64,000 bases of DNA from Tubiluchus corallicola. Taxonomy: Eukaryota > Animalia > Priapulida. The first letter of the stretch is position 1. Each line of letters starts with the position of its first letter. The stretch spans positions 432,639-496,638 of the forward strand of contig JAQGDQ010000148.1 in NCBI GenBank assembly GCA_030141605.1. Reading direction: 5' to 3'. The notes beneath the pieces are model-generated. The model worked only from the letters and a program-made list of their open reading frames with translations, was not told the origin of the DNA and did no database searches. A program made the translations under genes and the position numbers. This document shows, one piece after another, positions 24,501-50,400 of the stretch.

Positions 24501-27500
24501 TTCATCCGCGGTTGAAACCATTCGACATGCTCACTGATTTTGTAAGTACAAACAAAAAACTTGATAGTTTTAGGCATAACATTGTACTAATTTATAAAAA
24601 CAGAGAATAACTACAAGATTTTTTGGCAAGTAATTTTAAAGTTAACTATTGTCTAGCTAGGTTAAGTTGTTTTTAAGGACACAAATTTGAATCTAAAATT
24701 GCCAACATGTTTTTTTCTGCATTTTAGGACAGAAAGATGTATAAGGAGCCCATTGAAGCTTCCCTAAAAGCTATGATAGCTTATGGTTGGAGTATTAAAA
24801 GCACTGGTGCCAAGGGAGCAGCAGAGGGTACTGGAAAGCGTCGTAGCAGCATGCAGACTAAATCCATTGGCAAAATGGTACTTATCTACTTACTGACATT
24901 GAGTCACTTTAACAACCAATAATCCTATCAGTTTTTAGAATATTTGAATATGTATGGTATTTCATATTGCAGCGTATTCAGAAAAATTTGTTGTGAACTA
25001 ACTTTTATTTTGCATTCTTGACCAATTTTGTACTAAGATACCACAAGCAATTATGAAACTCATCTGTGCTCAAAAAACATTTGCAGCTGTTAGGGTAGTT
25101 CAACTTGCTATCATGCAGCTCTATTGTAATACCTAATTAGCATATACTAATTAAATCTAGCCATAAACTAGCAGCAGTATTCTTTATTTTTCAGTATTGA
25201 CATCTATTGCATGAGAGTAATAATATTTACATTAACAGTGATGCTTTATTTTATAAATCAAGGTCACAGGGACGAAAAGTAATAAATTCACCATTTTGGC
25301 GTTCTTTTTCTTATTTCAAGTTTTGTTACACTGTTGCTTTATTACGATGTAAAGCAAGCAATGGTATTGTTTCACTCCGTGATGCACGGACAATGTGTCT
25401 TGAAAAATTTGCAATGTGTAATTTTGGCGTGATTGTGCTTTCATTACGTGTCGTGGTGAAGTCGTGACATGTATGCACTAGCATTAGTAATAGTGTGGAT
25501 GCCACATTAGTTTTGAGAATACAAGAAACTGATGGGTGATTGAGCTAGTGTTACTTGGAGTCCATAAGATGGTTTGTGTTGTAGGTTATTTACATTTTAT
25601 GGACATCCACAGTTGTGTGCTATTGATATTTTTTCGACCACATGTACTCAAATTTGTTTCAAATTTTAAAACACTATGTTCAAAAAATATTTGCATGTTA
25701 TTCTGTGAGGTCTTGAAAGGAACAAATCTTTTCACAGTTTCAGCGATTGGTGATGATCGCAAAAAGGTCAAAGATTAAGTGCACCAGACAAGACAATGTA
25801 TTTGTGTTCACTTGACAACGCCTCGCAGCTGATGCAGTTGTAATAGTAACAGTTTTAATATGTTTTAACAGCTAGCTAGAACCTTACCTAGTTCATTTTT
25901 TCTTGTTCCCAAGTAAGATCCTGCTGGTAAATCACTCTACACACAGACTAATAGAATTAAGTAAAGTCTATGTAAAACAACTGACACTACTGAACTGAAG
26001 CTGCAGATGGCTTTGCTTTATCCCAAGTCACGTGGCAGTTGTAGTTGAGGCGTGTTGTTATGGTGTAATTCACCTTTGACCTACTGCAACTGCAACTGCA
26101 CGTGCACACAACGAAACTGTGAAAAGGCTTATTCTATAACTTCTTAGAAGGAAAAACTGGGCTACAATATATCCTGTGGCATGCCAGGGTTACATTTTGG
26201 TGATTTGTTTGAAAACCTGTAGAACACATAAGCCATTATTGTTACATCAGTTATTCTTGTCTGCCACATAGCTCTTTATTACGTGAACTCAGGCCTATTA
26301 CTGTCATTAATTGGTAAGCAATTTACATGAAATATGTGTATATTAATAATGTCGCTTTTAATCCAGCTGTGAGTTAAATGAATGTTTTTATGATGTCTTT
26401 TTTGTAACTAACTTGATGAAAGTAAATATTTTTTGTTCAGGATTTTGATGCACTGCATGGATACAGTCCTAAACCTGTGGACATGACAAACTTGAGTTTG
26501 AGTAAAGAAATGCAGGCAATGGCAGAGAGATTAGCTGAGAACGCGCACGACCTGTGGGCTTGCAGAATTATGGATGAGCTTAGAAATAAAGGTATGAATT
26601 ACTGAATTCATTATTAAGTTACTGAATGAAACTATTGAAAGGTAGACTTTTAAAGGCTTAATCTGCAATAGCTCTTGAGCCCATTAAGTTTACAATTATA
26701 TAAGAAACTTACTGTATTTTTATATTTTTGACCACCTGCATAGGAGGAGGAAGTCACCCTCATTTGATACCCTACGATATGATGACAGAAAGAGAGAAAA
26801 GAAAGGAAAGGCTGCGGTCACTTGACATGCTGAAATTTTTGCAATTACAAGGTTATAAAGTTGAGAAGTAAGTACATAAAGAATTTATACGGTAGTGTAT
26901 AACAGTTCTATGCAATTAATGTACAAATATAAAACTTTTGCTAACGTTTTAAATTTTATTTTTACTAGGTTTGATGCATCATTTTTCCATAGAAGTTTTG
27001 ACAAAAATGTTTCTACATTTGCTTTCTGTTTCAATATTTTCGTTATTAACTTGTTCAATCAGTGGGCAGAAATATTTGCATTTTTTTAGAATAATGGACA
27101 ACAAATTACATACAGAATTAGCTGGACAAGATTTGAATGAAGAATCAGCAATTGAAAAACGGTTCGCTTACAGTCTTCTCACCAAACTGCTAGAATACTT
27201 GGAAAGAGCTGCTCAAAATCTTTGCAAGTTGTACAAAGGTCGGTTGTACACTCGTCGTAACAGCTATGTATCTGCGACCGAAGATGTGAAGTTTTTTGGA
27301 AAGGTGAATTAGAAATATCTGAACATTCTCGACATAATTAATAAAAACGTATTTATCTTTCAGGCTGGAACAGCAACAAATGTTCTTGGCAGATATACTA
27401 ATGCAAAATAAAAGAAATGGCATCAACTTCTTTATTGTGTATAATCGCTGTATGATCGCATTGCAGTTGTAGCAGATCATCTTTAGTGCAATTGAGGTTT

Positions 27501-30500
27501 TTCATGCAGTCTTTGGTGTCATTAAGTAAACTTACAAAACTTTGTAATAATAGGAATTTTCTTAGCAAAGATTATTACAAGTATTTCTAGAGTTCATACT
27601 TTATCTTAGGTGTAAAGATTTTCAAATTATGTGTGAGATCTTAAATTTGTTAACAATACAAGTCCTAAAACACTGCCACAAACTGATAGCTGAGTTGTCT
27701 ATTATTTAAATGTGGTGATTAATGATATTTAAAAGTGGTTTCTGCGGATGATGCTTTCTTGCTTTTTCCAGTAACATGTTCTGTGTCTTTTACGCAGGTT
27801 GCATTACCTTTGGTTGAGAAGTATTTCGTGTCACACAGAGCATACTTTTTAGCCAGCAGCACTTCAGGGCAGACTGCACATGCTTCTATACAAGAGAAAG
27901 AATTAGTGGGCAGGTAGGCTCTTTATTTTCTCAGAGGGATACATTTCAAAATAAGAGCTGATTAAATCACTTTACATAGACATTCTTTTGTCTACTTTGT
28001 TAATAATTGATGCTTTACAAACCCAAACTTGACAGCCTTTTGCTGCCAGGTCAATGCAATTAAGGACGTACGCGTTGGTTTGAGAGGTCGGCAGGTGACA
28101 TCTCATAAAAATAAAGTAAGAATAGTCAAACAGAGAAAGCAAAACATAAAAGAAATTATCAGAGATGGGTCTTGTAAATTTGAGCAGGCTCCTGTTTGTT
28201 TCAGGATAGTCTTACAAGCTTTTTGTAAGCTGAATAGTTATAATGTTTACTGAGTAAGTGGTCAGAAAATTAACATTCAAATACTGTGATAAATGTGACA
28301 GGCTACCTCATTTACAAGACACTAAAAGGCTGTATTATCATCATAAAATATTTTTATGTTTTATTATCTTTAGATTCTGTGTTCTGCAGCAATGCAAATT
28401 GTTTATTTTTTAGCTTGTTCTGCAAGTTAGCACAGCTACTGAGGCACAAGTTTAATGCCTTTGGTTCCGCTGGTTCTGTAACAGTCCGATGTCTGCAAGT
28501 TCTGGTTCAGGCTATTGATGCAGGGTAAGTAGATGTCACCATTGTGTATTGTGACAGCTTTTTTTCTTGCACACTTGAGGTGACTGATTATTTCTTGCCA
28601 TTACATAGCTCTAAATTGTATGCAATAAAAGAAGCATTAGTACTGTAAGTTAGAAACAGTTAAGGTATCTTTCATAAATACATTTGTAATAAAGTATTAC
28701 ATTTTATTACATTTATGCTTACATTTTTAGATCTGTGGTGAAAAATCGTCCAGATTTCGTCAGAGCTCTCATGCTCCCATTCTTCAATAATGCGGCGGAA
28801 GATCTGGGTGCCATGGTGGACAGTCTCCGAGCTGGTAGTCTTCTAAGTGTTAAGGTTAGAGAAATGTTTGCATTAAGTGCACATAGTCTGCCCAACTAAT
28901 ATATATGAGGTGTATATTTAAAACCTCTCTTTTTTATCTTCTTTATATGCTTAAATCTGTTTTTATTACAAAATTTCTTAAATTTCACATTATGTGTTTG
29001 CTTTCCATCATTTTAGTTCATTTATATATTACTACATGTCCAATATATATTTACTTAGTAATTTTTATATATTACTATATATTTATTTATTATTTATATA
29101 TTATGTATTTTAGTAATATTTATATATTACTATATATTTATTTATTATTTATATATTATGTATTTTAGTAATATTTATATATTACTACATGTCCAACACC
29201 ATTCACTTGAAAATATTTCATTACCAAATTACACGGGCACAGTAATTAATTAAAAATTATGCGATTTTAATGAATTTTGATCTGTGTTTTAAATTACCTG
29301 TTAACTTTAATTACTTATAGGAAACAGCAAGAAAAAGCTATTGCACACTCAATTATGCGCACATGGTTTTATTACCAGTCCTGACGTCCATGTATCATCA
29401 TTTGGGAGTTTGCAACTTTGGAAAGGATTTGCTGGGTAAACAGATTATTTTTCTATGAGACTCATACATGTTATTTAGACAGCTTAACTGAACTAGACGT
29501 GACTAAATGCGCTTTGTATGGAATCTATACGTCTTAGCTTTATGAAGCTTCATAATTTTGTATTATCAAAAGAAATACGCAAAACTTTTCAAAGTTATAC
29601 ATAATTTTCCAAAGCCAAATGAATATGAAATGTTGTCATAAACTTGGCAAATTTAAAATAGTACGCGAAATTTTTTACATATTAAGAAAAATGGGCAAAT
29701 TTTCCATTCGTTCTAAACAGCATTATAGTTTATCTCTATTTATTTCATTAACAGCAATAACATAGCAACAGTTGTGTAGTTTTTCATCTGATTTCTAAGG
29801 TGAAGGTGCACAACTGTATCATTAAGCATTCTTGTGAGTTACACAAAAAATATAAATGTTCATAGCAAAACGCTTATGCACGTGTTTCGAGAAATCTAGT
29901 TAAGATCTTACCTGCAAAAAATTTTTAACATGCTCTTGCAAATTACAAACCTTTGGGTAATTTTGGTCGTTTTAAAAATGCTGGTCTTGAAATTCTAAAA
30001 TAACTTTGACAGTTTGTGTCACAATTATTTGTACTTAACAAAACTGCCACAATAGTTGGCAGAACATGGTCTATTGTTACATCCCGAGAATTTGCACCAG
30101 AAACTATAACAATCTCTTCTGTTTCAGTTGATGAGATTCAACTTGCTTGTTACAAGATTCTCAATAGTCTCTACACTCTGGGTGTTTCTGCATCACAGTT
30201 TGCTGAGTACAGAACCATTAAAGCTGAATTAGATAAGTATGTGCTCTTTTGGGTTGTGCTGAAACACGTATGTGTTTTTGAATATTTGCGTATTGTCTTG
30301 TAGACATTTTTAAGCACTTAGAGATCTTGTCTGTTGGTGTTGCCATTTAACGAACTTAAGATTAGAATTGTAAATAAACCTTTTGGAGTTTGGTTTTTTC
30401 TTTTTATTGTGCTATGATTCCGTTCTTTCTTACAGACATCGACCAGCTTTAGGTCAGTGTTTGGCTGGTTTTGCGGGAACATTCCCTGTTGCTTTTCTGG

Positions 30501-33500
30501 AACCAGAATTAAACAAGAACAATCAGTATTCTATACAGGGGAAAGGAGAGGAGCATTCTCTGGAAGCACAAGGTTAGCCTAATTGCTTATGACTTTTGTT
30601 TTGAATCTGATTGCATTTATTGAATTTATGAGGAAAGATTTCAGTGTTAATAATTTCAGCTATTTTATAACATATTTTATAACAACTGCTATCACTTCTG
30701 AATTTTACCCTTTTTGCTCTGTGTTTTTACAGATGTCTTCATAACAAAGCCATCAGTGCCTATCTGTACATTCTGATTTTTTATTAAGTTGCAACAGAGT
30801 ATTTTTGTGATTTATTAAGTTGCAATTTTTATCCATCATCACTGGGTCACCACGAAATGGTCACTTGATGGTTCTTGTCTTTGTAATAAAACATTGGCTT
30901 TTTCATCAGAAAATTTGAAGTGTGAATCTAGAAAGAATGCTAAAAAAGGCTGTTAAAATAATCGAGCAGTACAGTGATTATTTTAATATGTGAACGGCTA
31001 CAAGCCAAAGTAAAATCTCAAATAGTTTAGGAAAGTCAGTGTTGTGAGATTTTTAAGAGGAGATACTATATGTAAACAAAAACAAATGTTTAATTATTCT
31101 TTTTTGAAGATGTTCATTGACAATCTGAATTTTTTGTTAATGTTTTTCTACATTTAATGTTCCTGACTGAAAATGCACTTTACACTTAACAAGTAAATAT
31201 CCCAGATAACAGAAATATCTGAAGTATTAAGCTAGAAGTCTATAATTATTACGCTTAAGGTTGACCATAAAAATATTCTTGTTTATGCATTTTAACAGAT
31301 ATTATGAGCAAGCTAGCAGCCAGCATTCCAACCTTGGAGGGGACAATCAGTGAAGTGGAGAAGCCTTTTGTGTACGAACAGGCACCACACGTTATTGAAG
31401 TAATGCTTCCTATGCTGTGCAGGTGAGATTTCTGATGGACTAATCATAACAATTATAGAAAAATTTCAAAGTCTAAAATTTAAGTCAATGGAAACTCAAT
31501 TTGCTGCTGTGCTACACAAAGCACCTTTTTTAAATGTTTGTTATAACTTGTGCCTTTCCTTTTTTCTGTGCCTCATCCCCCTTTTCAACTGTGCAATGGT
31601 GCATCTGCATAAGGTTACTGGGTCAAGAAAGCTTCATTCTTGAGACTGATCAGCTTTCTATTTATCAGTTTATTACAAAGGAAATGGGAAAAATGATTTT
31701 AAGCTTAATATAAAGATTTTTTACCCCAAGGAGCTACTATAGAATATGTCTGTAAAGATATCTCAGTTACACTGAGTTTAGAAATTTATGAATTTTTATG
31801 TTGTAGCAGTTTGAAATCAAATATTTTTATACAGTTTTTGTGCAAACAGCTTTTGAGACAACTCACATTTGCATTTAATAAAAACATCTATAGCAACCAT
31901 TACTACATAGTGCTTCAAGAAGCTTTAATGAATAGGTAGTAACATATTTATTATGTAACCAAATTGCCAAACTGCAAATGGCTTATGCGGTCCTCAAGAA
32001 ATAATTACTTGTTATGAGCACCCCAAGTTTAGCATCCACCATAGGCATCACCATAGGCAATATTTTCTAGTAATGGCATTATTAATACTGTCAGTAAATG
32101 AAATGAAAATAGTAATGGAAAGCAATATAATCGTACCCTTTATAGTGTTAATAGTGTAAGACAAATGCTTTTCAATTTCTCTTTACAACAAACAGATGCG
32201 TTACATCAAAATTGAATGACATTATCAAAGGAGAAAACTGCTGCAACAACGAATATTAATGATTTTAGTGACAATAATAAACTCATTGTTAGAACCTTTT
32301 TGACGAGTGACACCTTAAATATATAATCACTCACCATTGTAAGAAGTTGAAAATCATGATTTTTAAGGTATATGAGGCTACTGAAGTTTTTTACAGTTCT
32401 TCTTTTCGTATTTTTGTAGTTATTTGGCCCATTGGTGGTCAGAAGGACCAGATAATACAAGTCTCATGCAAGGTGGTCATGTTACCATGGTAACAAGCGA
32501 ACATCTGAACACAGTGCTGAGCAATGTGCTGGCAATTATAAAGGGTCATACTGGACAGACAGAAGCTCCTTGGATGACAGGAATTGCAGGTGATTTGCCA
32601 TTGATTCCCAACGTGTTTTAACTCGTAATGCTGATATATAGCCGTCTAATAAAAGCTTATAAACGATTCAAAGAAAATGAGGTCATAATGCTGGTTGCTT
32701 CAAGCGGTAATCCACATTTCTCTTTTTAATGTGTTTAATAAAGCTTTATTTATGGAAGACTTGCTTTTTTACAGTGTCATTATTATTGCTATTGTTACCA
32801 TCACTGCAATTACCATTGTTACAAATATCATGATTGTTATCATCATCTTATCATTATAATCATTGAATCATCATTAATCTCATTGCCACTGTTATCATCG
32901 TCATCATCTCTGTTATGTTAAGCATCATCATCATCCTTGACATCGTTATCATTGTCATCGTCATGATCATAATTACAGCCATCATTATCACATGTAGCTA
33001 TGAGCTAGTATTATCTAAAAGTACCAAATATTTTTAGCTTGTTCACTTGGCATCGTATCGAATTCCACAGCTGATTTGTTGAATGAGTATCTAGTGCCTA
33101 TAGCACTGCTTCTGCGAGACAGTGCTGAACGCGTGTACAAAGATGAAGAAAATATGAAGATGGGACGGGCCGCTCATGAAGATGTCACAGAAGCAGAGGA
33201 AGAGCTACAAGCTGTGAGTAATCGGTTAACTCTGTAAAAACATTTTTATTTGTATCATTATTTTTACAAACAGTAAAAATTCTTATTGAATCGAACAATA
33301 AGCGCTTCATAAGAAACACTAATTTGCACTTTTATATACAAGTGAAGTTGTGTTCTAGATTAGAAGTTACTATAGTTTAAGAAAAAGTTCTTTAGGCACG
33401 AACTTTTGAAACAATTCTGTACTATGAGAGATACAGATAATAATGTTAATATATTAAATTTTATTTGATGTGTTTTCAATAATTCACACTTGTTAGTTTA

Positions 33501-36500
33501 TTACATTCTTATTTAAGAATGTTTAAGCAAAAAAACAGAAGCTACACACGCAAAATCATTATTTATAATGAAATTAATTACATTAATACTATAACATTTA
33601 AAAGCAAAAAAAGACCAAAAGCCAAGACCAAAGGGATTCATTTTGAGGTCAAAACTACTTTTGAGTATCATGCCTCTTTTCCGAATGAAGTGCATATTAA
33701 TTTGTAATTATATAGAAATAAATTAAAATTTGTATAAATTGGCAATATGGTTGTTTCTTAAAGGAAAGTATGATGATTTTTCATCTGGTGCCGTATTCTG
33801 AAATCCAGTAAAAGTATACATTTTAACATTTATAATAATGCTAAAGGATTTCTGATAATTAAATAATAACTTAAGAACTTAATGGCCAGAGTGCACAATG
33901 TTGATGACATCAGAAGCAAGCATAATTTTGTAGCACGCAAACATTTCACAAATATGTAGCACGTGTGTGCAAAAACGAAATTGAAATACAGAGCTACTGT
34001 TCAGCATCGACAGTGTTACACGAAAACTCTGCAAATTTATGTCGACAAATTTAAATTTCAAGTTTATTATCGTGCCATCACGAGATTTCATAACAAGTCA
34101 GAACTGAATTGAGAGGAACAATGCCTGATTTTGTGCAACGCGCTTCTGTGCAGGCGCCGTGTCCATTTAACTGTAACATGGATGTAACAGGCACAAACCT
34201 GTAATTAAACTTCCGTGGTTATAAATCTTTCATCTAAGTAACTCTTAAAAAAACAATTTTGTTCTCTTTCATTATTTTATACATTAGACTATTTTGAGCT
34301 GTACTTTAATAAAATTGGGTCCTGTTCCCCTTTAAGTTTCACTTTACCATTCAACATATTACTTTTACAAATCATCTATGCATTTATCTATTTTAATTCT
34401 GTTTGCTTATGAAGTATCACAGTCTATCAACTTTTGATGTCATAAATGTTTTCAGGACTACCAGGTGCTGGTGCGTGATCTGTATGCTTTCTACCCGCTG
34501 CTGATAAAATATGTAGACTTGCACAGGTAACCTAAACTCAATTCTTAATAATTCATAATGTGGCTTTTATTTTTTTAAATTATAATTTAATTTGTTTGTT
34601 TTTCATTAAATTTGCATTTTTTGTTTCAATAGCCATTTGTTGTTTTTGCAGATCTCACTGGTTGAAACATCCACGGATTGAAGCAGTGGAATTGTTTACT
34701 CATGTAGCAGAGGTATTCACCTACTGGCATCAGTCTCAGGTAATCTGAAAAATAAATAATATCTAGATTGTAGAACTGTTGTTGCTATCTTATTTCTTAG
34801 TAGTGTTTAATTTTATTGCATCTTAAGCATGTTTTTAAGAGCTGATTTTTGTTCTAAATAAAAATAGGCTACTACACGAACCACTTTATTAATTCATTTA
34901 TTAAGCTGTATAATCACACATTCGTTTCTTTGTTGCAAAGTATGTGTATTTACTAATGTAGTGTTTGTCCTTAGCGATTTGTTATTGGCAGTGATAAGAA
35001 AAGAATGATTTTTTGATTCTACTTTGCTTTGCATTAGAATTTTAAACGTGAAGAACAGAAGTTTGTGTCGTCTAACGAAATCAACAACATGGCTTTAATT
35101 ATGCCAACTAGCTCACAAGAGGGCTCCGCGGTATCTTCCACTACCAGCACCAGTGAAAGTTTTCATCGCAAGAAGAAACGGTAAGCACTTACAACTTTTT
35201 TTCTGAAGAAGTTCGCCTTCTAAGGACTGCTTTTAGTCAAAATGTGTTGTAATTTCCTTAAAGAACAACCTTATCCCACTGTATCTTTTTATCTCACTGT
35301 ATCTCATTGTAATAAAACTTGTTCCATTTTCACCCCAGTTTGATACGCTCTAAATATTTTCGCAAATACTTTTTATATTCACAAGTTAGCACAGTACAAA
35401 CCAGAAACCTGCACTCAGCAGGCCTACGTAATATAGTTTATTGTGATGAGCCTAAATCCTAGCTTAATATCAAGGACATTCTTCTAAAGTCAGACTCCGA
35501 ATTGGCAGAATCACCTTAGTCATGTCTGTGTATCTTTCTTCAGCCAGGTTTTGCGAATAGCGTGGACTAGTGTTTCAGATGAAAAACCACCCAGAGCCAA
35601 TTTGCTTGATGTCGCCATCCATTTACTGACCAGGCCGTGAGCAGTAGTGAAACTTTGAAGTTGTTGATTTCACTTTTTATTGATGTTGTTTATGCATTAT
35701 TTACAGAATGAACAAGGATCCTAGCCAGAGCTTAAACGTGGCTTGCTTGAAGCGAATGCTTCCTATAGGACTGACGTTGTTTGGCGGTCGGGAACAAGAA
35801 CTGGTCCAACATGCCAAGCAAAAATTACTTGATGTAAATTACTATTATTTTTGTTTTATACTTCATGTGAAGTATCATGTATCTATACTAGAATTAAAGA
35901 TGTTGAATTGTAAGTCTAAGTGTCGTTATATAGCAGTGAATCCAGACACTAATAGTGTTCACATTTTTTCCATCCGTATTTTGTGTTACAGTTATAATTG
36001 CAATATGTTACATGATAGTTTTAACTCAGCCCTTTGCTATGATGTTGTCATGTTATTCTTGCAGCACGAGAATGAAGAGTTGGTGGAAGAATATGTCAGG
36101 ACATCTTTGCTAGATTCCACAACTATGGTAATTAAAATTTTATTCTTGCTCTTCAGTATTATTAAAACCACTTGTAAAGAAAGAAGTGATAATGTCTGTG
36201 TTGAGTCAAATGTGTGACAAATAGATGCACTTTTTTATCAAGTTTTGCACACTGCAGACTGGTGTCCAGCACCAGACATCATTCTCATGTATCATGTTAA
36301 TGGCTGTGGTGGGATTGAAATTTAGCTCATTGTCAAAAACAATTCTCTGAATTGAGGCAGCAGCATAATAAATCTACGTGTAAATCCTCCCTCTGTGAAG
36401 GAAACATTGAAACAAATACAGCAAGTGAACCTGTTGCCCGGAAGCAGTTCTTCTGATTACACACATCTGTATATCACCCACTGATTAATGTGTGTAGCAT

Positions 36501-39500
36501 ACCAAACACCATGACCACTCTGCTGTTCCTTGCTCCTTGACAACTTATACTTGATCGTTTAGACAGTGAGGCAGTTACTCAAACAAATGGTATTGTTTTT
36601 GTGGATGTATTGCATATAATGTTTAGTTTTAACTTGTTTCTAGTGTTAGCAAACTTGTATTATCATTGTGTAAGTTCTGTCATGTGTCTACTCTGTTATG
36701 ACACCATCATATAAGGTATGGTTTCTCCAGTGTGTAATTTGCCAGCATTTTTCATTAACTAAGCTAATTTCAATTTGACATACAGGTGAGTTGGGCTTAA
36801 TATCAGACTGCAACACTACATTTCTGCTCTGTGAATATTTTATTTGACTGTTTATTTGCAGGCTGATCCTTATGATAAAAATAACTGGCAGAGAGTTCTA
36901 TATAATAAGATTGGTAGCAAGAACGTTGTTGGGCTTGAAGATCTTCCCCGTGACGTCAACAGTACCATATCAAAAATCATGTTTACTTCTAAAACTCTTG
37001 AGATCTTGCACATTGTGAGTACAATAAAGCACATCTCATTTAATAGTTTTAAAATATTAATGAGTAAAATTATTAGTTTTGGTTTACAAACACCCAAAAA
37101 CCTTTGCCAAAAGCATAAAGTCAAAACTAACGAACATCAGGCCTATTTTTTAGTATGCATTTATTTATGATATTATTTTGAAGTTTTCATTTTTATATGA
37201 ATAATTTCTTTACCTGATTTAATTCATTGAGTAAGATTGTAAGCCAAGTGACAAGTATTGTTTTGTTTTAGTAATATGTGCTTAGATTCTTTTTGTGGCC
37301 AAAGTGTATTGCATTCACGCCATTAAGAATGTTTAAAAGGTAAAATATAATTTTTTAATGCTGAAAAGAAACCCGACGTATCCCAAGTTGTGGTAGATTT
37401 TAACAATTTTTCTTGATTTTTTTTTGTTAGTATAAAATTTTGTCTGATTGTGCATGCAGTGTCATAAATGTGTCACCTAGCTTTATATAACCATTACACT
37501 GAGTAACGTTATTAATTGTTGTTATTTGTCATTCCTAGTGCTATTGCCAGTTGACAGAAAAGCATAGTGGAATCATAACTGTCTTAATTTTGTGTTGTAG
37601 TGGGACTCCACCTTTACTAAAATATTTTTATGCAACAGTCTGCTATAAGTATATGGACATGGCATAGAAATAATTAAGTCACTCAATGTGGGGATTTCCT
37701 AATCACTTATTTGTCACAGACTTTGCAATTAATTTAGTATTTTTGATAGAGCACATAAATATCCAGGTGTAATTTAGTTGAGTTGAAAAGGTGGATTAGA
37801 CTTGGTGAAGGTTTCTGAGGCTTATTGCATGACACACTACTTAACTACATTTGCTCGTCATTTTTTTGGTCAGGCATAAATTGACATGTGAAGGCCAGCA
37901 CATTTTCAATAAATACTTTATAAATGCATAAAACTATTACTGTTGCAAATAGATAGCATCTATATAACTATTACATTATTTTAAGAAATGGCTTAGCTCA
38001 AAAATAGTTTGTAGGATTGTGTAATATTTGACTTTATGCGCTGACTGTAATAATATTTCATGTCCAAAGTCTTTTTTGCATGTTATTGTGTTTGTGCATG
38101 TCAGAAAAGTATTGTTATTTAACTGTCATATCTTTTGTCAGCACATTCACCTTACAACTCTTTTTTCGTGGCATAACGTGTCTGCCTAAAACTGAACACA
38201 TATCTTTGCTAATTTCACAAGGCATTATATCTCTGCAAATCTGTTGCACGTAGGTTTGCATCACCTGAATGTTTCATTCGTTTCTATGAGAGAAGTGTTA
38301 CTAACATTAGCTATTAATAACTTTTTTTGTGCACTCTATAAATAAAATTGATTAACCACTAATCAGTTAATTATAACTATTGTTTATATACAAGTTAATA
38401 TTTTGCAGTATTGCAGTACTGATTTGCTGCTGTTTGTGCCATTTAACAAGTCATTTCAAGTTAAACTTTTACAGCTTAAGCCTAATGCTTCATTTGTTGT
38501 AGTTTATCATAATTTTAACTGTCATAATTATCATGGTTTATTTGTTAGTGTTGTTAGTAGCATCATAACAAATGTAGTTCCGTGATTCGTCTATAGGTGG
38601 AGCACCCTCACTCACTAGGAACTAGTGCTTGGCGTCGGATCATCACCACGCAGCGTAAGCGTGCCGTAGTAGCTTGTTTCCGTATGATGTCTCTACACAG
38701 TTTGCCCAGGTAATCATCGCGTTTATTATATGTGCAGGTACAAACAGCGCACCTCACGACTCATGCCTCCGCGTGGCTGCGGATAGTCTCCATACAGAAA
38801 AGACGCAAAGTACTGGAATGTCTAAAGTTTTCCGTACAGTTACACAATTTACCAAGGTAACCCCTCGAGCACACGTCTGTCTCTTACACACACTAGAAGT
38901 TTTTCCCAACATTACGCACCATGGACGGATACTATTATGCTGTCAATTGGTGCAGTCGTGTGGGGAGAATTTCGCTTAACCACTTGATGCAATATCTAAT
39001 AATATTTTGGCTCCGTGCACCTTGCTGCTATTCATACATAAGTCACAGTACAAAAATAGCTTACACTAACATTTAAACAAATATATCCTCTCTTACTGTG
39101 CTTTTAGAAATTGCAAAGCTAATTAATTTTACTTGCATGATTACAGAAGTGTAAACTGAGCTCTTCTTGGCCACATATGATTGATCAATATTTTATTTTT
39201 CGCTTACAGTATCCAGTTGCTGCTTTATTATCAGAAATTCCTTGGGAAAACATTTGGTTGACTGGCATGTAGTATTTGTTTCCTCGAAATCCCTATGCTG
39301 GTTTTTCCCTTGTCTGTTGTTGGTGCCCTTTGTGTAAAATAAATTTTTGTGTCGTTTTTACTTCGCAAGTTCGTAGTTTTTGTCTCAAATTTACTTCTGT
39401 GTTCATCTTTGCTTCAGCAGAATGGCAATTTGTGGTACAGTACTTAAAATTGGACCTTGTGTTACTAAGAATGTTACGTTACTGTTTGAAAAGTTGGTGT

Positions 39501-42500
39501 ACTTCTCTTTTGTTCCCTCCCTCATCCAAGTGATTTATACTGATGCTTATTTCTGTATTTGGAGTGGATTGAAGTGTTAATATCTATGACTTGTAATTTT
39601 ACTATTTTTGCTTTACGTGGTTGACATCATTGTCGTTTTTCTTTTGATTCTACTATGTTTTGGTTTGAATGCATAGTAAAATTTGATTATATATTGAAAT
39701 TGGTTCAGTTTTTCTGAAATATGTACTCTGATCTTCTCTACCATGAAAACAGCTGGAAAAAGTTGTTGTTATGTTTGTTGAAATGAGTTTCAACTGCTTC
39801 GGTGACTAAGATTCTAAACAGCATGAAATCTTAGCAATAGCAACTGTGATTTGCTTGTTACACTTTCTTACCATCAAAGTTTTCTGGGATGTACTGGGAC
39901 GTTTTCTTTACAAATCTACTTGTACTTGTTTTAGCCTACACAAGCTGCTAGCCATTCTTATGTTATAGTTAAAATATGAGGTATACAGTAATGTGACTTG
40001 TGATATTTTTCTTGCATTTATGTCTGTTGCACAACAATTTGGGAATGTCAGCATGGTTCATTGTTAGTTGACTGGATCTTGGACTTTCGACCACTTTAAA
40101 CATGTGGAACTATTCTAATGGTCCGTTTTTCTTAACACTAATATTTCTGGAAAAAAAAAAATTGAAAAAATTTTAGATGTTACAAATGGCAAAATATTTT
40201 GAAAAATGTTTTATTTACCATGTCTCACGTTTCATTAGCCTAGTCGTAGATGAATCCCATTGTAAAATGGAACCATTCGACTTTGACATTTTTTCATTTA
40301 ACTACATTGAGGAACAGAAGTGTGCGTGTAGGGTCTACCTAGGTTGATAATGTCTTTCTGTGCCCAGTAGTAAAAAAGAGCTCATTGCTAATGAAATTTT
40401 ATGCTTTCTTCTACGTAACTTTTTAGTATAGACCAGTCTAGGTTTAACTTTACAGTACAAATTATTAGGTACTTGTATCAACTAAACTAGTCTATGTTTT
40501 GCATAGGTTGTATACATTTTTCTGTGCATTTGTGTAGTGATAAATGCTAGTACTTTTGCAAAACACATAAAGTAGCAGATATGGCTAAGGCAATTTGTGT
40601 AAATAATAGGCTAAGATGGTCAAAGGCACGTTGTAACTTTGTTTAATATGAGTGAGTTATTATTGACTTGTTTGATGTGCTAGACTAGTTGAATGTATGG
40701 TTAAACTGGTCACAAAAATTTAGGCTTTCAGTAATAATCAGATGCACTGTCTTTTAACTTTTGTCATGGAAGTTCATAAATGCCAAAATGAAATACTGTT
40801 TTTTTTTACATTTGGCTAAAATTGTAAACAAATCCGGATTGCTCCTTGAAACAATTCATGTTTTGCATAGATAAACACTACTTGCTGTTTTTTTTGAAAA
40901 ATTCAATTAAAAATTGAAGTGATACAACTTGTTTAGAACAATATTGCAGGGTAAATGGTGATTGGCTTTTTGTTTCCAATTAGTGCATTTCATTTCATCC
41001 TTGTTTTGTGAAGGACCATATTTAAAATAGAATTGAGTTTGCCACCCTCAAATTCTATTCAGCGTCATACACATACGCAAATAGCCAACAGGTAATATGG
41101 AAAAAAGAATTTCCTATGTGATATTTTGCTTTAGCATTATAAACAGAATTTTTTTTAAAAACTGTGGTACTGCCTATTTCAAACTGGGGTCATTTTAAAC
41201 TAACATTTTTATGTTGGCTGGCTCAGGCATCGTTCTATGAACCTGTTTCTTCAAGCATACATGGAGAAATGGTTAACTGCAGATGCAACGGGACAGGAAT
41301 CGCTTGTTGAAGACATTACTGTAAGTATTTTCTTTACATCAAGCACTACAGGATAAGCATAGTATTATTATAATATTACAGGATAGTTTACTTTCACTGT
41401 TACGTACAGGACTACACCTCCATTTGTTCTCATGTAACTATAGGTCATTATAAGTCACTATGTGATCTCTAACATATTGCCTTGTTTAACACAAGTTGTA
41501 CTCATATATAAACATACTAGTGAAATTAATATTTTGATCGCTAGTCTTTATAGCCTCTGTTTGGTGAAAGTGAACTGATCGTTGTTGTTGTTGTTACTGT
41601 AACTTTTGTCTTTTGTGGGTGTATCTTCATCATGACATCTTGTCTTGTGTGACTATTTAATTTCTCTGTTGTGTCTGTATCGTTTTTTCTGTATTGTGTA
41701 TATAGTTATTTGAAGCTTTAAGGGTATGCAGTGTGCATCATTAGTTTACATTCATGTCATGTTTTGTAACGTTAATTGAATGTCACTGTTATCATCTCGT
41801 TGCCACTTATAACTCCATAGTGACTTGGAGTTATAATTCCATAACTTTTAATTATCACCTATGTTAATGTTTGTTCTTTATTTTGTTTTCATGAAAAAGC
41901 ACTTTTTTAATTAAATTTCTTCTTGCATTTTAAACCTGACGTTTGCAGACTTTGCCGGTGCTGGAAAAGAAGGAGAAGGATGAAGAAGAAGAACGACCCG
42001 ATCCACTCAATCAATTAGTGACTGCTTTCAGTCGACATGCGACCACCGAACAGAATGCACTATCTGATGACTTCTTGTACATGGCTTTTACTGAGCTCAT
42101 GAGCAAGGTTTATGATTCTTAATTTTCATTTGGTTTAGCTTTTCAAAGAAAACAGTGAATTTACATTGTAATTGGACTTTTAATCTTTGCACTTATCTGT
42201 CAGCAATTAACCATTTAGTTATAGCATACCTGAAGGGTAATTAATTCACATATTAAATTGTTTTACATTTGATATTGAATGCAGTACCAACAGCCCAAAA
42301 CCAAAAGTTTAACTACATTTCAGTTTGATATTTTGTATTTGTTTACAAATGTCCTGGTCCATATAACTGAAATAACCGCATGAAAACCTGATAAGATTGG
42401 CTAGTAACATAAGATAGTCAGGTATCAATTTGTACAGACTGGTTACGAAAACTTAACTTGTTTGTTTATTTTACTTTAGAGTTGTAGTGGCGAAGAGGAT

Positions 42501-45500
42501 GATGATGGCGGCGATGACGATGAAGAAGAAGAGGAAGATGAAGGACCTGCTCTTTCTTTTCAGGTAAAATTTTTATTTTTTTTGTGTGTGTCTATATGAT
42601 TTGCGTTAGATAATTGTTAAGCAGATTGCAATTTGTTCTTGTTTTTGATTTCGCTGTATTTAATGATGCCTGAACCCAGTTTATTTGTTTTTTTGTTCAA
42701 TTTGCTTAAACAAGCTTAATCTCTAACATTAATTTACTGCAATTCTTCTGCTTGCACGTTTGTTTCTGTACGTTTTCATTTTGTTTTTAGGAACAGGAAA
42801 TGGCCAAGCAGAAGCTGCTGTTCACGCAAAACCGCTTGGCTGATCGCAGTGTGGCTGAAATGGTGCTGCTAAACATCAGCGCTTGTCAGGGTGAACAGAG
42901 CAACATGATGCTTTGTAACTTGTTGCTCGCAATTGCTTTATTGCTGGATGGCAATGAAAGTGTGCAGAAGGTAATATAGTAAATTGCAAATATCTTGATT
43001 TTTAGCTTTATTTTGATGTATATTATAACTTTGTTTAATTATTAATGCTGTTCAAAAATTTTTATCCTGTGCCATCGTGTAGTAAATACTGAAATCTATG
43101 ATGTTACATGTGCTTATTGATTGTATCTTCATTAAATTAATTTCAATGATTTTTTTTATGAACTGAGTACTGCATCTTCATTAAATTAATTTTAATGAAA
43201 TTTTTTATGAATTGAATGAAAATTTGAATTGTAGTTTATTTGTCATCTCTAATTGTATTTGTAGTATGCTTAATTAACTATACCTTACTTCTGTATTTGT
43301 TACACATGCTATACAGACCATACTATTCTGCTATACCTTAAATGATTTTTACTCTATTTCTATTTCAGAAAATGCTGGCACATCTGCAGGAGAAAAAGGA
43401 CACCAGATTTTTTACTTCTGTTTCTGGTCTAATGGACAAATGCAGGTGTGTAATAGTTTTTGTTCTCTAAGCTTTTTTTCAATTAGTGTGCAAACTATTA
43501 ACTCTCCACACTAAAGAGATTTTTGCACTGCTCTCCATTTTTAAATAACATAAGTGCTAGGTTAATTAGTCTGTTATGTATCATTTTAGCGTGCTGGATC
43601 TTGATGCATTTGAGCGAAATACCAAAGCAGAGGCATTAGGTGTCGGTCCTGAAGCAGCCGGAGAACAGAACATGCATGATCACGTGGTCACCTGTAAACT
43701 GTTTCGTTTTATTCAGTTGTTGTGTGAAGGCCACAACCTCGGTAAGTGCTAAATATTCTTTAAATTTGCTTACAGTAAAGTGTTCTAAATATGGTTTTCG
43801 CATTTTCAAGATCTTGAGTCAACATCATTTTTTTCTTAAGAGCCTCAGTGCTGTTATTAACCTTTGTATTCGTCGGCAGATTTTCAGAATTATTTGAGGA
43901 CGCAGACAGGAAACACTTCAACGGTGAATTTAGTGATCTGTACAGTGGATTACGTGCTTCGCCTCCAAGAATCAATCATGGACTTTTACTGGCATTATTC
44001 CAGCAAGGAGGTTGTTGATCAGCAAGTAAGAACAGCAGTTTTTTAAAAATCTGACGACGTTAAATCATAGGATGTTAAATCATAGTTAAAAACAGTTGGT
44101 GGTTGTATTGTATCTGGCTGTCATCATTGGAAATTGTTTCGTCTATAAACTTCCATAAATAAAAAGTTCAGACAACTTCAATGTGTAGCTTAAATTGACT
44201 TCTTTTAACGTTTAATATGCGATTTCTTTCTGACGAATGTTTTACAGATCCATCATTGCGAAACATCGGGTATTAACTCCCCACCTGCTTGCTTAGTTTA
44301 ATTTAATTATATAATTTCGGGCAGGTGGCGCCACAGTACTATGGTGTTTAACTCTGATAAAATTAATAATGCCAAAATCCTCTACAGAAATCTATGAAGT
44401 AAAATTATGAAAACTGCTTGCCCTTAATCAGAATTAGTACTTCAATGTTTCAGTAGTAGATTTGTTTGCCTCATTTTGATTGGGAAACTAGTATCAATCA
44501 AAGTGCCCACTGTTAACATAACTATATGATTGTCCTCCTTACAACAAGACTATCACGTAACATGCACCTATTCCCATTCTTGGAAGTCTGGTCATGTTTG
44601 TCAGCTGTATATGTCATAGCTGTATAGTGCAGTTTGATCATGTGCTGATCAGTATGCTGGGTACTTGGGATTAACTGTCACTGACTATGCCAGATCCAGT
44701 GCAGTTTGCTCATGTATAACTGATAAGAATAGACCGGGGCCCAAGTTTTAAAAGTGGGGACAGGGCCAACACTGCAATTCTTGAGTTTTTGATTGTTTCA
44801 GAACTCTGATACAACAAATGTTAATTAAGTTATCTCTTAGATAATTTTTGCACAGCAGACTAATCAGAACAAAAAATGTTATTAAACATTAATTATCAAT
44901 AATTTTACAATATTTGTGCCAACATGGACATTAATTCACAATCTTACGCTCTGAAAATTTTCATAGTTGTAATTACGGTGAATTCAAGTTGTCATAGTCA
45001 CTGTCAAACTAGTTGTAGTAATTTACAGAAATGTTCTCATTCATAACTGAAATTAGTTGTAACCATTAAATGGGCTTAGTGCCAAATTTTTTAAAGATCT
45101 TCCCAGCACAAAATGTGTCATACTGTTTTAGTGGAAACCATTTGACTATAATTAATCAGCAAGTTACATGTTTGAATCTTAACCAATTTTTTCCTGAGTT
45201 TGTGTTTTCGACAGGGTCAGCTGAATTTTAAGAAAGCTATTAAAGTCGGTGCACAAGTATTTGCCACTTTGACTGAAATGATTCAAGGTCCGTGTTCCGG
45301 AAATCAGATGGCCTTGGCTCATAGCAGATTGTGGGATGCTGTGGGTGGTTTCTTCTTCTTCTTTGCCCACATGCAGTACAAACTTTCTAAGGTAGAATTA
45401 CAGCTGTTACTTGTGCGTATTAATTCTCTTGGCTATAGAATTAGTACCGTCAAATATACTGTGTTAAGTAAAAAAAACTAAATAAAATTTGTAGGTTACA

Positions 45501-47372
45501 TTAATTCTTATACAATTTCTCGCTTTTTCTTGATACTAAAAGAAATTATCACAAATCGTTGGTAATACACATAATCAAATGTAACGTGTGTAACAAACTA
45601 CATGTGTTTAGCTTGTAAGTGAAGAACTGTACGTAACTTGTTGGTATAAATTTTGTTTGTAAAAGCTCACATTGTTCGTGCTGATTTCAGAATGCCTCTC
45701 AGCTACAGTTGTTGAAGTCTATCTTACAACTTCAAAATGAGATGGTAACAATGATGATATCAATGTTGGAAGGTGCGATTCAGTTACTTTTTATTTTATT
45801 TATTATTACTATTTTTGTTTTTTCTACTATCACTTTTTTATTACTAATATCGATGTTTCACTAAGCAAATAAATGTTTTTTGTTCAAAAAATACCAGTGT
45901 TTGTGGTGTTCTCATAAAACAATGTCAAGTGAAATTCAAAAATGATAATATTTTCAGCTGTACTTTTTCATTTCTGTGCTCAGGTAATGTTATGAATGGA
46001 ACTATTGGAAAACAGATGGTGGACACTCTCCTTGAGTCCAGAACTAATGTAGAGGTATATATAATTATGTTTTTCGACTAATAGGAAGTATGTATATGAC
46101 ATGTCTTGCCTACACATGTCCTCTGAAATGGCTGTTCTTGTCTCCCCTTTTATATTAAGATTTTGGGATTCCAACTATCATTCTATTTATTAAGCTTTTC
46201 ATTCATTTGCATGTGAATCAATTACTGACTAAAATCTTGCACTGGTCATAAAACAAACTTTTTTCTCAGTAAAACCAGATAATTTTATAGGTAAGACATA
46301 GAACACCAGGATAGAGAAAATTATTCATTATTAATTAGTGATTGATTGTCATTTATTATTTTTTAACAAAAAGAGTATTTCAATTTTTTTTACTTTGAAA
46401 TGGTATGCCCTTTATTTCTTAGGACATAATGCTGAGAACAAGAAGTCAAATCAGGCAGTGCTAAGCCTGGTCATCAAATAGATATGTGACCACTGGGAAA
46501 CGTTTTCCATGCAGTTTCGTCTGCCATACTGACCTAGGCTGTTTCTTAATTAATAAGAATAATTTACTACGTTAATTAATAAGAGTGAACTCAAAAATGA
46601 TAATGCTTATATCACAAGTGTGAGTCCTAGGGTCAGTAATTAAATGCCTGTATATGCATTCTGTTGTTTTGTTGGCCTATTTGTTGCTTATGTTGTTGTA
46701 CTTTGCATTTCATAGATGATACTAAAGTTTTTCGACATGTTTCTCAAGTTGCAAGAAATTGTCGAGTCTCCCGGATTTCTGGTATGTAAGAGTTTATGTA
46801 CTTCTAAATTCTATCATCTTACAATATATGTCTTACATAAGTATGTCTAAAGAACTGCTAATTTTCTAAGACATTGTTACTTCAATAATCATAGTGAATT
46901 TACTTTGCTTGCTTATGTTGCATTTGGATATCATGCCGGTATTGTTGTTGAATATTTTTTAATTTTTTTAACGCTTTCACGTGGTCCAAAGGGTAAGTTT
47001 TAAAAATTTTGAAATAATGATAGTGGTAACGTATTAATAACAATAAAAGTTATTATTTTTCTAGCCGGTTTTTCTTTCATAAACTAATCACCACATGTGT
47101 TGGGATGACTGCACTAATTGTCTAATTGTGCTAGCAATATCACTTTTAATATGCTTTGTGTTCCCAAAATAAAACAGTTGTGCATTTTGATATTAATTAA
47201 TTGTCCTCTTTAGGAATATACAAGGGAAGGTTTTATAACTCCCAGAGACTTTAAAAGAGCCATGGAAGCTCAGAAAGTTTATACACAGTAAGACAACATT
47301 TCATTTTTCTTTATTGTATTCTAGATTATCCAAAGAAATTATACACCCAATATTTTATAAGTAGATTTATTG

Positions 47373-47407
<35 letters not shown>

Positions 47408-50400
47408 CAGCTTACTCGAGCTCTCCAGGAATCCTGCAAAATGTAGAACTTGATTTTGCACTAGTTTGTCTCCATTATCACAGTATCAGATATCCACTTG
47501 TTAAAGTACTTTGAAGAAATTGCTAATTATTGCACCCTTTTAAAACTTGTAAATTTGTGTTTTTATTTTATTTTAGAGAAGAAATAACTTTCCTGACGGA
47601 GTGTGCTGCCCCAAGAAATGCTGAGGGTAACATTGACTATAATGAATACTGTGAACGATTTCATAATCCTGCCAAAGACATCGGCTTCAACTTAGCTGTC
47701 CTGCTTACAAATCTGTCTGAGCACATGCCTAATGATCCCAGGTGATGTATTTTACTTTCACATTTCTTACACTATGAGTTGTTTTACAACCATAGAACTT
47801 ATTTTATATAGTACTAATGCTGTTTCTCTCAATGTCCAGGCTGTCACGGTTCTGTGAAAATGCTAGCAGCTTCTTGGAGTATTTTGAACCCACACTTGGC
47901 AGGATCGAGATCCTGGGCAGCGCTGGTCGTATTGAAAGAGTTTACTTTGAGATAAATCCAGATCACAAAACACAATGGGAGAAACCACAGATTAAGGTAA
48001 CAGTAAAGCAGAATTTACTCTCACTTGCATTATTTTCAGTTGAGTTCATTATGTTTCGATTATTATAATTTAAATGTTAAAAAAATAATTATTAAAAAAT
48101 CCCATTGTTAAAACCATGTTTGATAAATTTTTGTAAGGGACTTTTTTCATTCTTATTCTTGATCATTTGTGATTTTTATGGTGTATTAATGTATTTCCAA
48201 TATGTTGGTTTTGCTCAATGGCTTTGTGCTGTCCATGTTTGTATCATGCATTGATGTTTGAACTGTTTTAGGAGTCAAAACGATCATTCCTTCACAGTTT
48301 AGTTAATGAAGGTGGCGATAAAGAAAAACTAGAATTGTTTGTAAATTTCTGTGAAGATTCCATATTTGAGGTAAGTCGTAGCAATAATGCTCAAGTGTAA
48401 CTCAATCTTATGTTATTTTACTTTTTCTCGGAAATAGGTCACTTACGATTTTTTCACTACGGTCATTTCTAAAGCTAAAACTAATGTTAAATGCAGAAGT
48501 TTAGAATTCGGGAAACAAAACAGAACTTTATTGCAAGAGGCTAATAGCATTTCATATTGTCATTCAGGGCTCTCTGTGGTATGGTATCTCGAAGGGCTTT
48601 GTTAAAATCTATTCAAGTTCTATTCATTTGCACTTTTGGCTGAGTTGTAACTTCTAAACCGCCACAATTGCCGCCTTATTTTGAGATCGATTGATGTTTC
48701 TAAAATTATGCCTATACGTAATTAAACACAGTTATCTCTAATTTATGATGTACAGATGCAGCATGCCAGCAGCATTAGTCCCGAAGAGGAGGAGAGTAAG
48801 CCAACTGCGCCGGCAGACAGAGTCGGCATTATACGCAGGTACATTTATAGTTTATAAGCAGTTTTATATGAACAATTTGAAGTTATTCTGTACTCATTGC
48901 CTTTTGATCTTACCGTTTTCCTGCATAAGCTTTTAGTACTGCAACTTGCATATTGCTCAGCTAGTGATTACAAAATGCAAAGTTTAACATAGCATTCTTT
49001 AAGTGACATTTTTGGGTGGCTTCATTATTTTATTTCTTGCTTCGGTAATCAATATCAAAAACTTTGTAATATAATGCTTCATAGATTTTTGTAGTTTGGT
49101 TTTTACTAGAATTAAACTTCATATACTGCAGTTATGTGACTTATATTAGTTGATGAAATAATATAAAAGCACAAAAACTTAATCTACAGCATTAGTATAG
49201 TTCACTCTTGCATTTTTTAATAATAATTCCATCTGTTAATAATAATAATACAAAAGACATGTATGTACGTATCCACTCTAGTTTTCAACATCCATGCCAC
49301 ATACCACACCCTGCCAAGTATTTATGTTGTTTCGATCTTCGTGGCCTGGATGGTGGCCACGTGGTTTTCGTTTCTTCATACATTAGTATTTTTTACAGGT
49401 CCCGGTAAAGATTTACATTTTTTAGGCAACTCGCCAAAAATGTTTGTAAAGCACCCCGTTAGTTAATCCCTTTCTTTTAACAAAATGCTCTCTTTTACCA
49501 GGTCTTCATCTGGTCGGGTTGGTAGAAAAAGAGAAAACTTGCACTGTGTTACTGAAATGGCCTGCAAACATAGCAAGCAGCAAGTCAAGGGTTTTTTGTT
49601 ACATATTTTAATATTTTATTTAATTTCAGCAAAGTCATTGAGCCTGTAAAGGCAGGTATTGGCAGTGTCTATGTATTTATCATGAGCTTCTTGGTACTGC
49701 TTCGCTGGTCTAATATAAGGTAACAAAAAATTGTTGTTTTTAATTACATGGAGTGATTATGGAATCAAACTGTACACCATTTTACGATACTAAAATGATA
49801 ATAGTAGCTGAAAAAGAATGCCATCAGTTTCTTATTATAAGTGATGAAACACTGATAATGGTACCCTTGAATAATCATCTTAACCTGTGATAACAGCAGG
49901 AGGGCAAAATTTCTTTATTATTTCATTTTTCTTTTTGAATGTTGTTGATTGGATTATATAAAACTGCTGCAATTCATTATAATTCTAATTAAATTACAGG
50001 AAGCATTATCAAATGATAAGAAAGATGAATCGCTATGAGTTAGCTGTTGGTGCTATGAAGCTCACTTGGTACTTAATAAACAGGTTCTTCTGGATTACGT
50101 ATCTAACTCTTGAGTAAGTAACTTCATTTTCACTGATTTAACCAAAAGTGTTTTACATATAATGTGAAAAGATTTATCTCTTTCAGTTTTGCCAGCTTTG
50201 TAAAAATTGGTTATGTAGTTACATAGTTACTGCAAGATTGGTTTTTACTGAAAGGGTTGATTTGGTCATGCTTCATTATTCAACTATAATTTTAATGGTT
50301 TTTTTGTGTATCAAGTATAATGTTGTCAGGACAGTTTATTTTTTTGATAAATTAATTAGAAAATTTGGCAACAAACATTAACAAAGTTCTTCAGTTTAAA

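Follow-up and report, generated by a model that had tools for sequence, protein, structure and literature searches.

The window, that is, the whole 64,000-nucleotide stretch of Tubiluchus corallicola DNA analysed here, carries most of a ryanodine receptor (RyR) gene (Table 1). The coding part within it runs from the equivalent of about residue 1490 in an insect RyR of 5100 residues to a stop codon near 62150. The splice model comprises 78 exons, which were built from 78 of 81 exon seeds; the other three seeds had wrong coordinates and were discarded, and the model omits a few divergent exons. Phases are consistent in 70 of the 77 joins. The join from exon A to exon B is one of the seven inconsistent ones, and some of the other six lie next to discarded seeds or to exons missing from the model. 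Spliced contigs of run X2, which we guess to be RNA, join several RyR exons and are ~93–95% alike over neighbouring exons. The donor of the downstream constitutive exon is joined to 41949 in this run, and its contig cover is absent over 36340–40777, the stretch that holds A and B; no RNA junction of either exon was seen, a blank that is neutral as to their use.

Table 1. Features of the RyR locus, in window coordinates.
Feature	Position	Strand	Details
Host gene, ryanodine receptor (RyR)	761..62153	+	tblastn with P0094 and P0003; splice model; spliced contigs of run X2
Upstream constitutive exon, ending in phase 0	36862..37014	+	splice model; 75% identical to Priapulus
Exon A, ancestral-type CaM-binding helix (CaMBD2)	38597..38709	+	113 nt; tag acceptor, gtaatc donor
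Gap between A and B	38710..38737	+	28 nt; carries the splice donor of A and the acceptor of B
Exon B, diverged copy of the CaM-binding helix	38738..38856	+	119 nt; cag acceptor, ag|gtaacc donor
Downstream constitutive exon	41227..41320	+	the final codon of A or B ends on its first base

Other features of the gene were recorded in passing. Several exons at 51018–55827 are unmodelled and may be alternatively spliced; this part matches the divergent region preceding the membrane part. The Priapulus models X1 and X2 (P0003 and P0006) differ by 15 residues near residue 1027, in this same divergent region. Two high-copy repeats are intronic, at 33810–33883 and 42046–42679 (depth in run X1 about 1450 and 500, respectively), and many loose ends of run X1 occur at the first of them. 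A dispersed intronic DNA repeat has two copies, at 20655–20873 and 25717–25995, which were seen as translated self-matches.

Exons A and B lie in tandem between two constitutive exons. Both run from phase 0 to phase 2 with GT-AG borders, matching the upstream exon that ends at 37014 and the downstream exon that starts at 41227. An earlier sequence-only reading had located the pair, and its coordinates, 28-nt spacing, exon lengths, phases and splice sites for B all hold. It had also named A as the canonical RyR calmodulin (CaM)-binding helix, CaMBD2. This assignment is borne out by a match of A to the CaM-binding helix in solved RyR2 and RyR1 structures (E 2.4e-7) and by its motif, which places W at anchor 1, C at position 16 and F at anchor 17, i.e. 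in the 1-17 spacing. The borders of exon A are the same in many animals. Exon B is 42% identical to A (16 of 38 residues). Its motif retains W1 and C16 and carries K12, E15, L17 and K18, with one extra residue after position 18; the changes that had been claimed for it, F to L and AVVA to KVLE, are present. The sole match of B among solved structures is the RyR1 peptide of 2BCX, and this match is weak (E 0.53).

The prominence of B was compared with that of other segments of the gene. Scored against its neighbouring exon, B reaches 71 and the next best candidate 25, in a set of 23 open, same-phase segments with flanking splice sites, drawn from the introns next to 77 exons. The A-B match is the top coding self-match among 971 stop-free segments (E 1.3e-4, two DNA-repeat matches set aside), and no further duplicated exon, EF-hand exons included, was found in the window among the 77 modelled exons. 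With weight matrices derived from the 76 other exons of the RyR gene, the acceptor and donor of B outscore 57 and 51 of the 76 other sites, and those of A outscore 37 and 59. The splice-site scores of A and B are at, near or above the gene median, and both scores of B are above it. A protein word search with B alone, over proteins of 71–2000 residues, gave no match even though the Priapulus orthologue was within range, and this blank is thus attributed to limited sensitivity. A profile search with A and B together returned 98 matches, among which only three unrelated repeat-like rows fit B better than A; rows P0043, P0045, P0057 and P0088 were excluded from this set as non-RyR.

The reading frame computed from the splice model is open with A alone or with B alone. 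Joining A to B leads to a stop 53 codons past the upstream exon, a break that the sequence-only reading had foreseen. Retention of A, the gap and B together places a TAA stop directly after A, and skipping of both exons leads to a stop after 27 codons. The 28-nt gap between A and B is the shortest of 77 in the gene, the next being 98 nt and the median 418 nt, with gaps that hide an unmodelled exon being overestimates. Judged by its length, this gap is very likely too short to splice and would enforce exclusion in addition to the frame. In the proposed mechanism, the gap would be too small for the spliceosome, blocking double inclusion of A and B, and the branch point of B would have to sit in or beside A's donor. 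Mis-spliced products would be removed by nonsense-mediated decay, with the frameshift as a second guard.

The usual branch-point distance is ~18–40 nt, which would put the branch point of B inside A or no more than ~10 nt from A's donor. Between 11 and 45 nt before the B acceptor there is a single NTRAY branch-point-like word; it sits in A's donor, with its A at 38713. Because such words are barely enriched in the RyR gene (YTRAY in 33 of 76 windows and in 22 of 76 control windows; GTAAT in none of 76), a branch point at 38713 should be read as a hint. Steric exclusion has been described for the C. elegans exons egl-15 5B/5A and let-2 9/10, with gaps of 14 and 30 nt (PMC4165533), and for 57 human clusters in which the donor-to-branch-point distance is below 50 bp (PMC5740500). 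Such pairs resemble A/B in having a gap below the minimum intron length and a frameshift upon double inclusion. They differ in belonging to other genes and in having RNA data, whereas exclusion in the RyR pair is deduced. The A/B pair has means of exclusion in its short gap and its early stops, of which the steric block is what we infer.

Over the 18 exons common to all references, the window's RyR is 79% identical to that of Priapulus, 65–66% to those of arthropods and 53–59% to those of three spiralians. A nearby-exon search gave three matches among 30 candidates, the best being the Priapulus caudatus RyR (76%). Both RefSeq Priapulus RyR models (XP_014664678 and XP_014664679) have a B-type exon with the same neighbouring exon on either side, which argues that B is conserved and not debris. 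When the Priapulus models were aligned to the window with tblastn, they matched B (54%, E 4e-7) and not A. An insect query onto the window prefers A (E 1e-9) over B (0.083), so RyR homology would not have steered a gene finder to B. By this argument the Priapulus B-type models, which are predictions, may rest on transcripts. B and the Priapulus B group together in three trees (support 100/99 and 100/98, and 98/96 under the mixture model). Few exons are as poorly conserved as B, which is 46% identical to Priapulus versus a median of 81%. No A-type sequence was found among the Priapulus RyR protein models; B may be the sole CaM-site exon in Priapulus, and the A exon may be missing from that assembly. 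The either/or pair proposed in the sequence-only reading is thus upheld, as a conserved pair, by the frame, very likely by the gap and by the B orthologue in the Priapulus models. On sequence grounds, A and B are a genuine, conserved exon pair and very likely form a live either/or switch.

The pattern in Priapulus allows another history without a live switch: in priapulids, B took over from A as the exon that is always used, with A surviving as a relic, or the roles are the other way round here. Both Priapulus models use B and none bearing A was found, as this history would predict, yet we consider it improbable. Exon A retains 12 of 14 conserved core residues, its frame is open and its donor outscores 59 of 76 others, and B keeps its derived residues though the window and Priapulus RyRs are only 79% identical, a distance over which an unused copy should have decayed. 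The blank word search with B alone would suit B being a young duplicate that is not used or an artefact of the assembly. This reading is highly improbable and is refuted by the Priapulus orthologue of an exon only 42% identical to A. A contig of the DNA-like run X1 also spans 38677–39566 with a single difference, which lies outside B; run X1 may be the window's own source, so that this contig argues only against local misassembly. Joint use of A and B, or use of a single long exon across the 28-nt gap, is scarcely credible and has no observation in its favour, since for a full-length protein it is excluded by the stop at 53 codons in the first case and by the stop right after A in the second. 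The preferred reading of A and B remains that of one RyR gene with two tandem CaM-helix exons, which are with good probability spliced one at a time and would yield two channel forms predicted to differ in CaM docking.

Exon A corresponds to the CaMBD2 helix of mammalian RyR1 and RyR2, including the W/F pair in 1-17 spacing (2BCX; PMC6340113, PMC11180167). In RyR2, the C-lobe of apo-CaM is reported to contact residues 3593–3606, and Ca2+-CaM wraps the helix (PMC11180167). By alignment of A to the solved structures, these residues are motif positions 7–20, with the Trp anchor as position 1. K12, E15, L17, K18 and the extra residue after position 18 are common to both B copies; at the same four positions, the 34 canonical rows have A (34/34), A (33/34), F (33/34) and R (34/34). 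Compared with a vertebrate-type row over positions 7–20, identity is 12/14 for A, 4/14 for B and 3/14 for the Priapulus B, and the two B copies are identical to each other at 9/14. The 1-17 motif on a basic helix is present in both exons, as W/F in A and as W/L in B; the net charge is +6 in A and +5 in B, and the hydrophobic moment is similar.

The sequence-only reading had laid weight on the F to L change at anchor 17. The change itself stands, but the weight on it is weakened. In the RyR2 peptide, W3587A causes a 30-fold loss of CaM affinity and F3603A hardly any (PMC6340113), and F to L alone should consequently matter little for peptide affinity. Because B keeps the Trp, Ca2+-CaM binding should persist, via the C-lobe. 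The larger change in B, by sequence comparison, is at positions 7–20, the apo-CaM contact in mammalian structures. The difference between A and B is predicted, by analogy with mammalian channels, to lie at the resting-state surface, and part of it may be silent in binding assays, given F3603A. By rebuilding positions 7–20, B would likely retune the docking of apo-CaM in the resting state and the N-lobe clamp. The choice between A and B would probably be set by tissue or stage.

A live switch could instead leave CaM affinity as it is and change how the helix packs into the channel, through subunit contacts or redox sensing by C16, or how it binds another partner such as a protein of the S100 type. 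The near-silent F3603A peptide fits this possibility, as do the retention of W1, of basic charge and of a similar hydrophobic moment in B. S100A1 is described as sharing the CaM site in RyR1 (PMC6087734), which favours the other-partner version. We consider this explanation rather unlikely, although it is the strongest of the alternatives, in that the changes in B cluster on the segment contacted by apo-CaM and introduce an acidic residue at a position that is Ala in 33 of 34 canonical rows. A switch acting on CaM docking is preferred here.

The sequence-only reading was not aware of such a switch in an RyR. One had in fact been predicted: in Troczka 2015 (PMC4309888), mutually exclusive exons are predicted at the CaM-binding site of insect RyR, as a second such site, on the basis of isoforms predicted in Apis, Musca, Ceratitis and Drosophila, and tuning of CaM sensitivity is proposed as their role. 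The insect pair is mentioned again in PMC6026295. It shares with A/B the exon position, borders, phases, the order with the ancestral type first and the proposed role (PMC4309888). In an insect cluster of 251 RyR proteins, 219 could be scored and 32 could not be parsed; 10 of the 219 have the diverged exon only, and two mis-joined models have both, in the order canonical, then diverged. In these two models (P0149 and P0226, from Homalodisca and Diaphorina), CaM-site exons or parts of them are wrongly joined, which is a warning for annotation. Both kinds of isoform are annotated in six insects (Tribolium castaneum, Schistocerca gregaria, Anopheles darlingi, Bradysia coprophila and two Leptopilina), and a barnacle RyR model also carries a diverged copy.

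The arthropod diverged copies resemble B in W1 (11/11), in L at anchor 17 (11/11) and in the absence of the N-terminal HP. K12, E15, K18 and the inserted residue are found in B and are absent from the arthropod diverged copies; conversely, Q8 is kept in B and replaced by A in 10 of the 11. B does not group with these copies in any of the three trees, and the 28-nt gap contrasts with 158–310 nt in four arthropod-like loci. Among the canonical arthropod rows, the Trp anchor is replaced by Tyr or Phe in 12 of 14, and the insect alternative copy keeps Trp. The priapulid pair retains the Trp anchor in both A and B, unlike most insect canonical copies.

Splice switches occur elsewhere in RyR genes. 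Insect exons a and b in SPRY2 are mutually exclusive (PMC3989282, PMC4204029, PMC6026295), and regulation by stage and tissue has been shown for this pair in Bactrocera. The SPRY2 exons resemble A/B as tandem duplicates in a single-copy RyR gene of which one is used at a time. They differ in lying in another domain, upstream of the window, and in having cDNA evidence; for the CaM-site pair, the basis is gene models. C. elegans unc-68 is described as having five further alternative exons (PMC7644089), which may include the CaM site. No priapulid RyR splice form and no functional test of a CaM-site pair were found in the literature searched, which covered few subscription papers. A switch of the A/B kind had already been predicted for insects, so the system as such is not of a new kind. 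What is new is its likely occurrence in a non-arthropod phylum, a lock of 28 nt, the residues K12, E15, L17 and K18 on the side that faces apo-CaM and a hint of repeated origins.

Metagenome loci were used to follow the site more widely. A second copy is present in 16 of the 74 loci that hold a CaM-site exon, many of the remaining loci being short or intronless at this exon. Splice sites were read in 14 loci, of which four are arthropod-like, two nematode-like and eight spiralian-like (L019 and L020 were omitted as copies of L018). Gaps between the copies are 69–1461 nt in these loci, and the 28-nt gap between A and B is the shortest seen. The two loci that we take to be nematode-like from their sequence type (L002:2532-3278 and L006:969-1375) have a canonical exon followed by a strongly diverged copy in the same phase, the borders of the copy in L002 being uncertain. 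The spiralian-like loci, labelled by their best matches to flatworm and other references, are L022, L027, L031, L046, L048, L050, L060 and L062, with gaps of 69–1461 nt. Both of their copies keep HP and F17, and this pair is possibly a separate duplication; no description of it was found in the literature searched.

Trees were built from 47 rows and from 43 rows (18 near-duplicates dropped and 14 locus rows added), the latter also under a mixture model; the alignment has 38 columns and the branches are long. The arthropod and nematode-like diverged copies group together on long branches (98/99; 96/92 under the mixture model), with priapulid B apart. Requiring a single origin for the whole set of diverged copies lowers the log-likelihood by 1.9 and 9.7 units (p-AU 0.386 and 0.259), and requiring a duplication in priapulids only lowers it by 0.6 and 1.7 units (p-AU 0.458 and 0.394). 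A presumably false control grouping has a p-AU of 0.09, so the power of the AU test with 38 columns is low. From these sequences we lean towards a separate priapulid duplication over one origin. In a tentative scheme, with somewhat less than even chances, the CaM-site exon of the single invertebrate RyR would have been duplicated independently at least three times (in priapulids, in arthropods with nematodes and in a spiralian group), and every duplication would have produced a splice switch on the same helix, with the priapulid version separate, locked by 28 nt and rebuilt on its apo-CaM face. If this is true, the priapulid pair would be a natural variant that separates resting-state from Ca2+-loaded CaM control of RyR.

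Vertebrates are described as varying their CaM response through three RyR genes (PMC7644089), and the vertebrate-type loci seen have a single CaM-site copy, unlike the A/B pair. Invertebrates seem to obtain by splicing what three RyR genes give vertebrates. The CaM site looks like a repeated target, with pairs in priapulid, arthropod, nematode-like and spiralian-like loci. Exon B keeps the Trp anchor for Ca2+-CaM and alters near-invariant positions on the apo-CaM face, and an A/B swap could serve to probe the action of apo-CaM versus that of Ca2+-CaM. The A/B pair would either date the switch to the ecdysozoan ancestor or add a case of convergent splicing in an ion channel.
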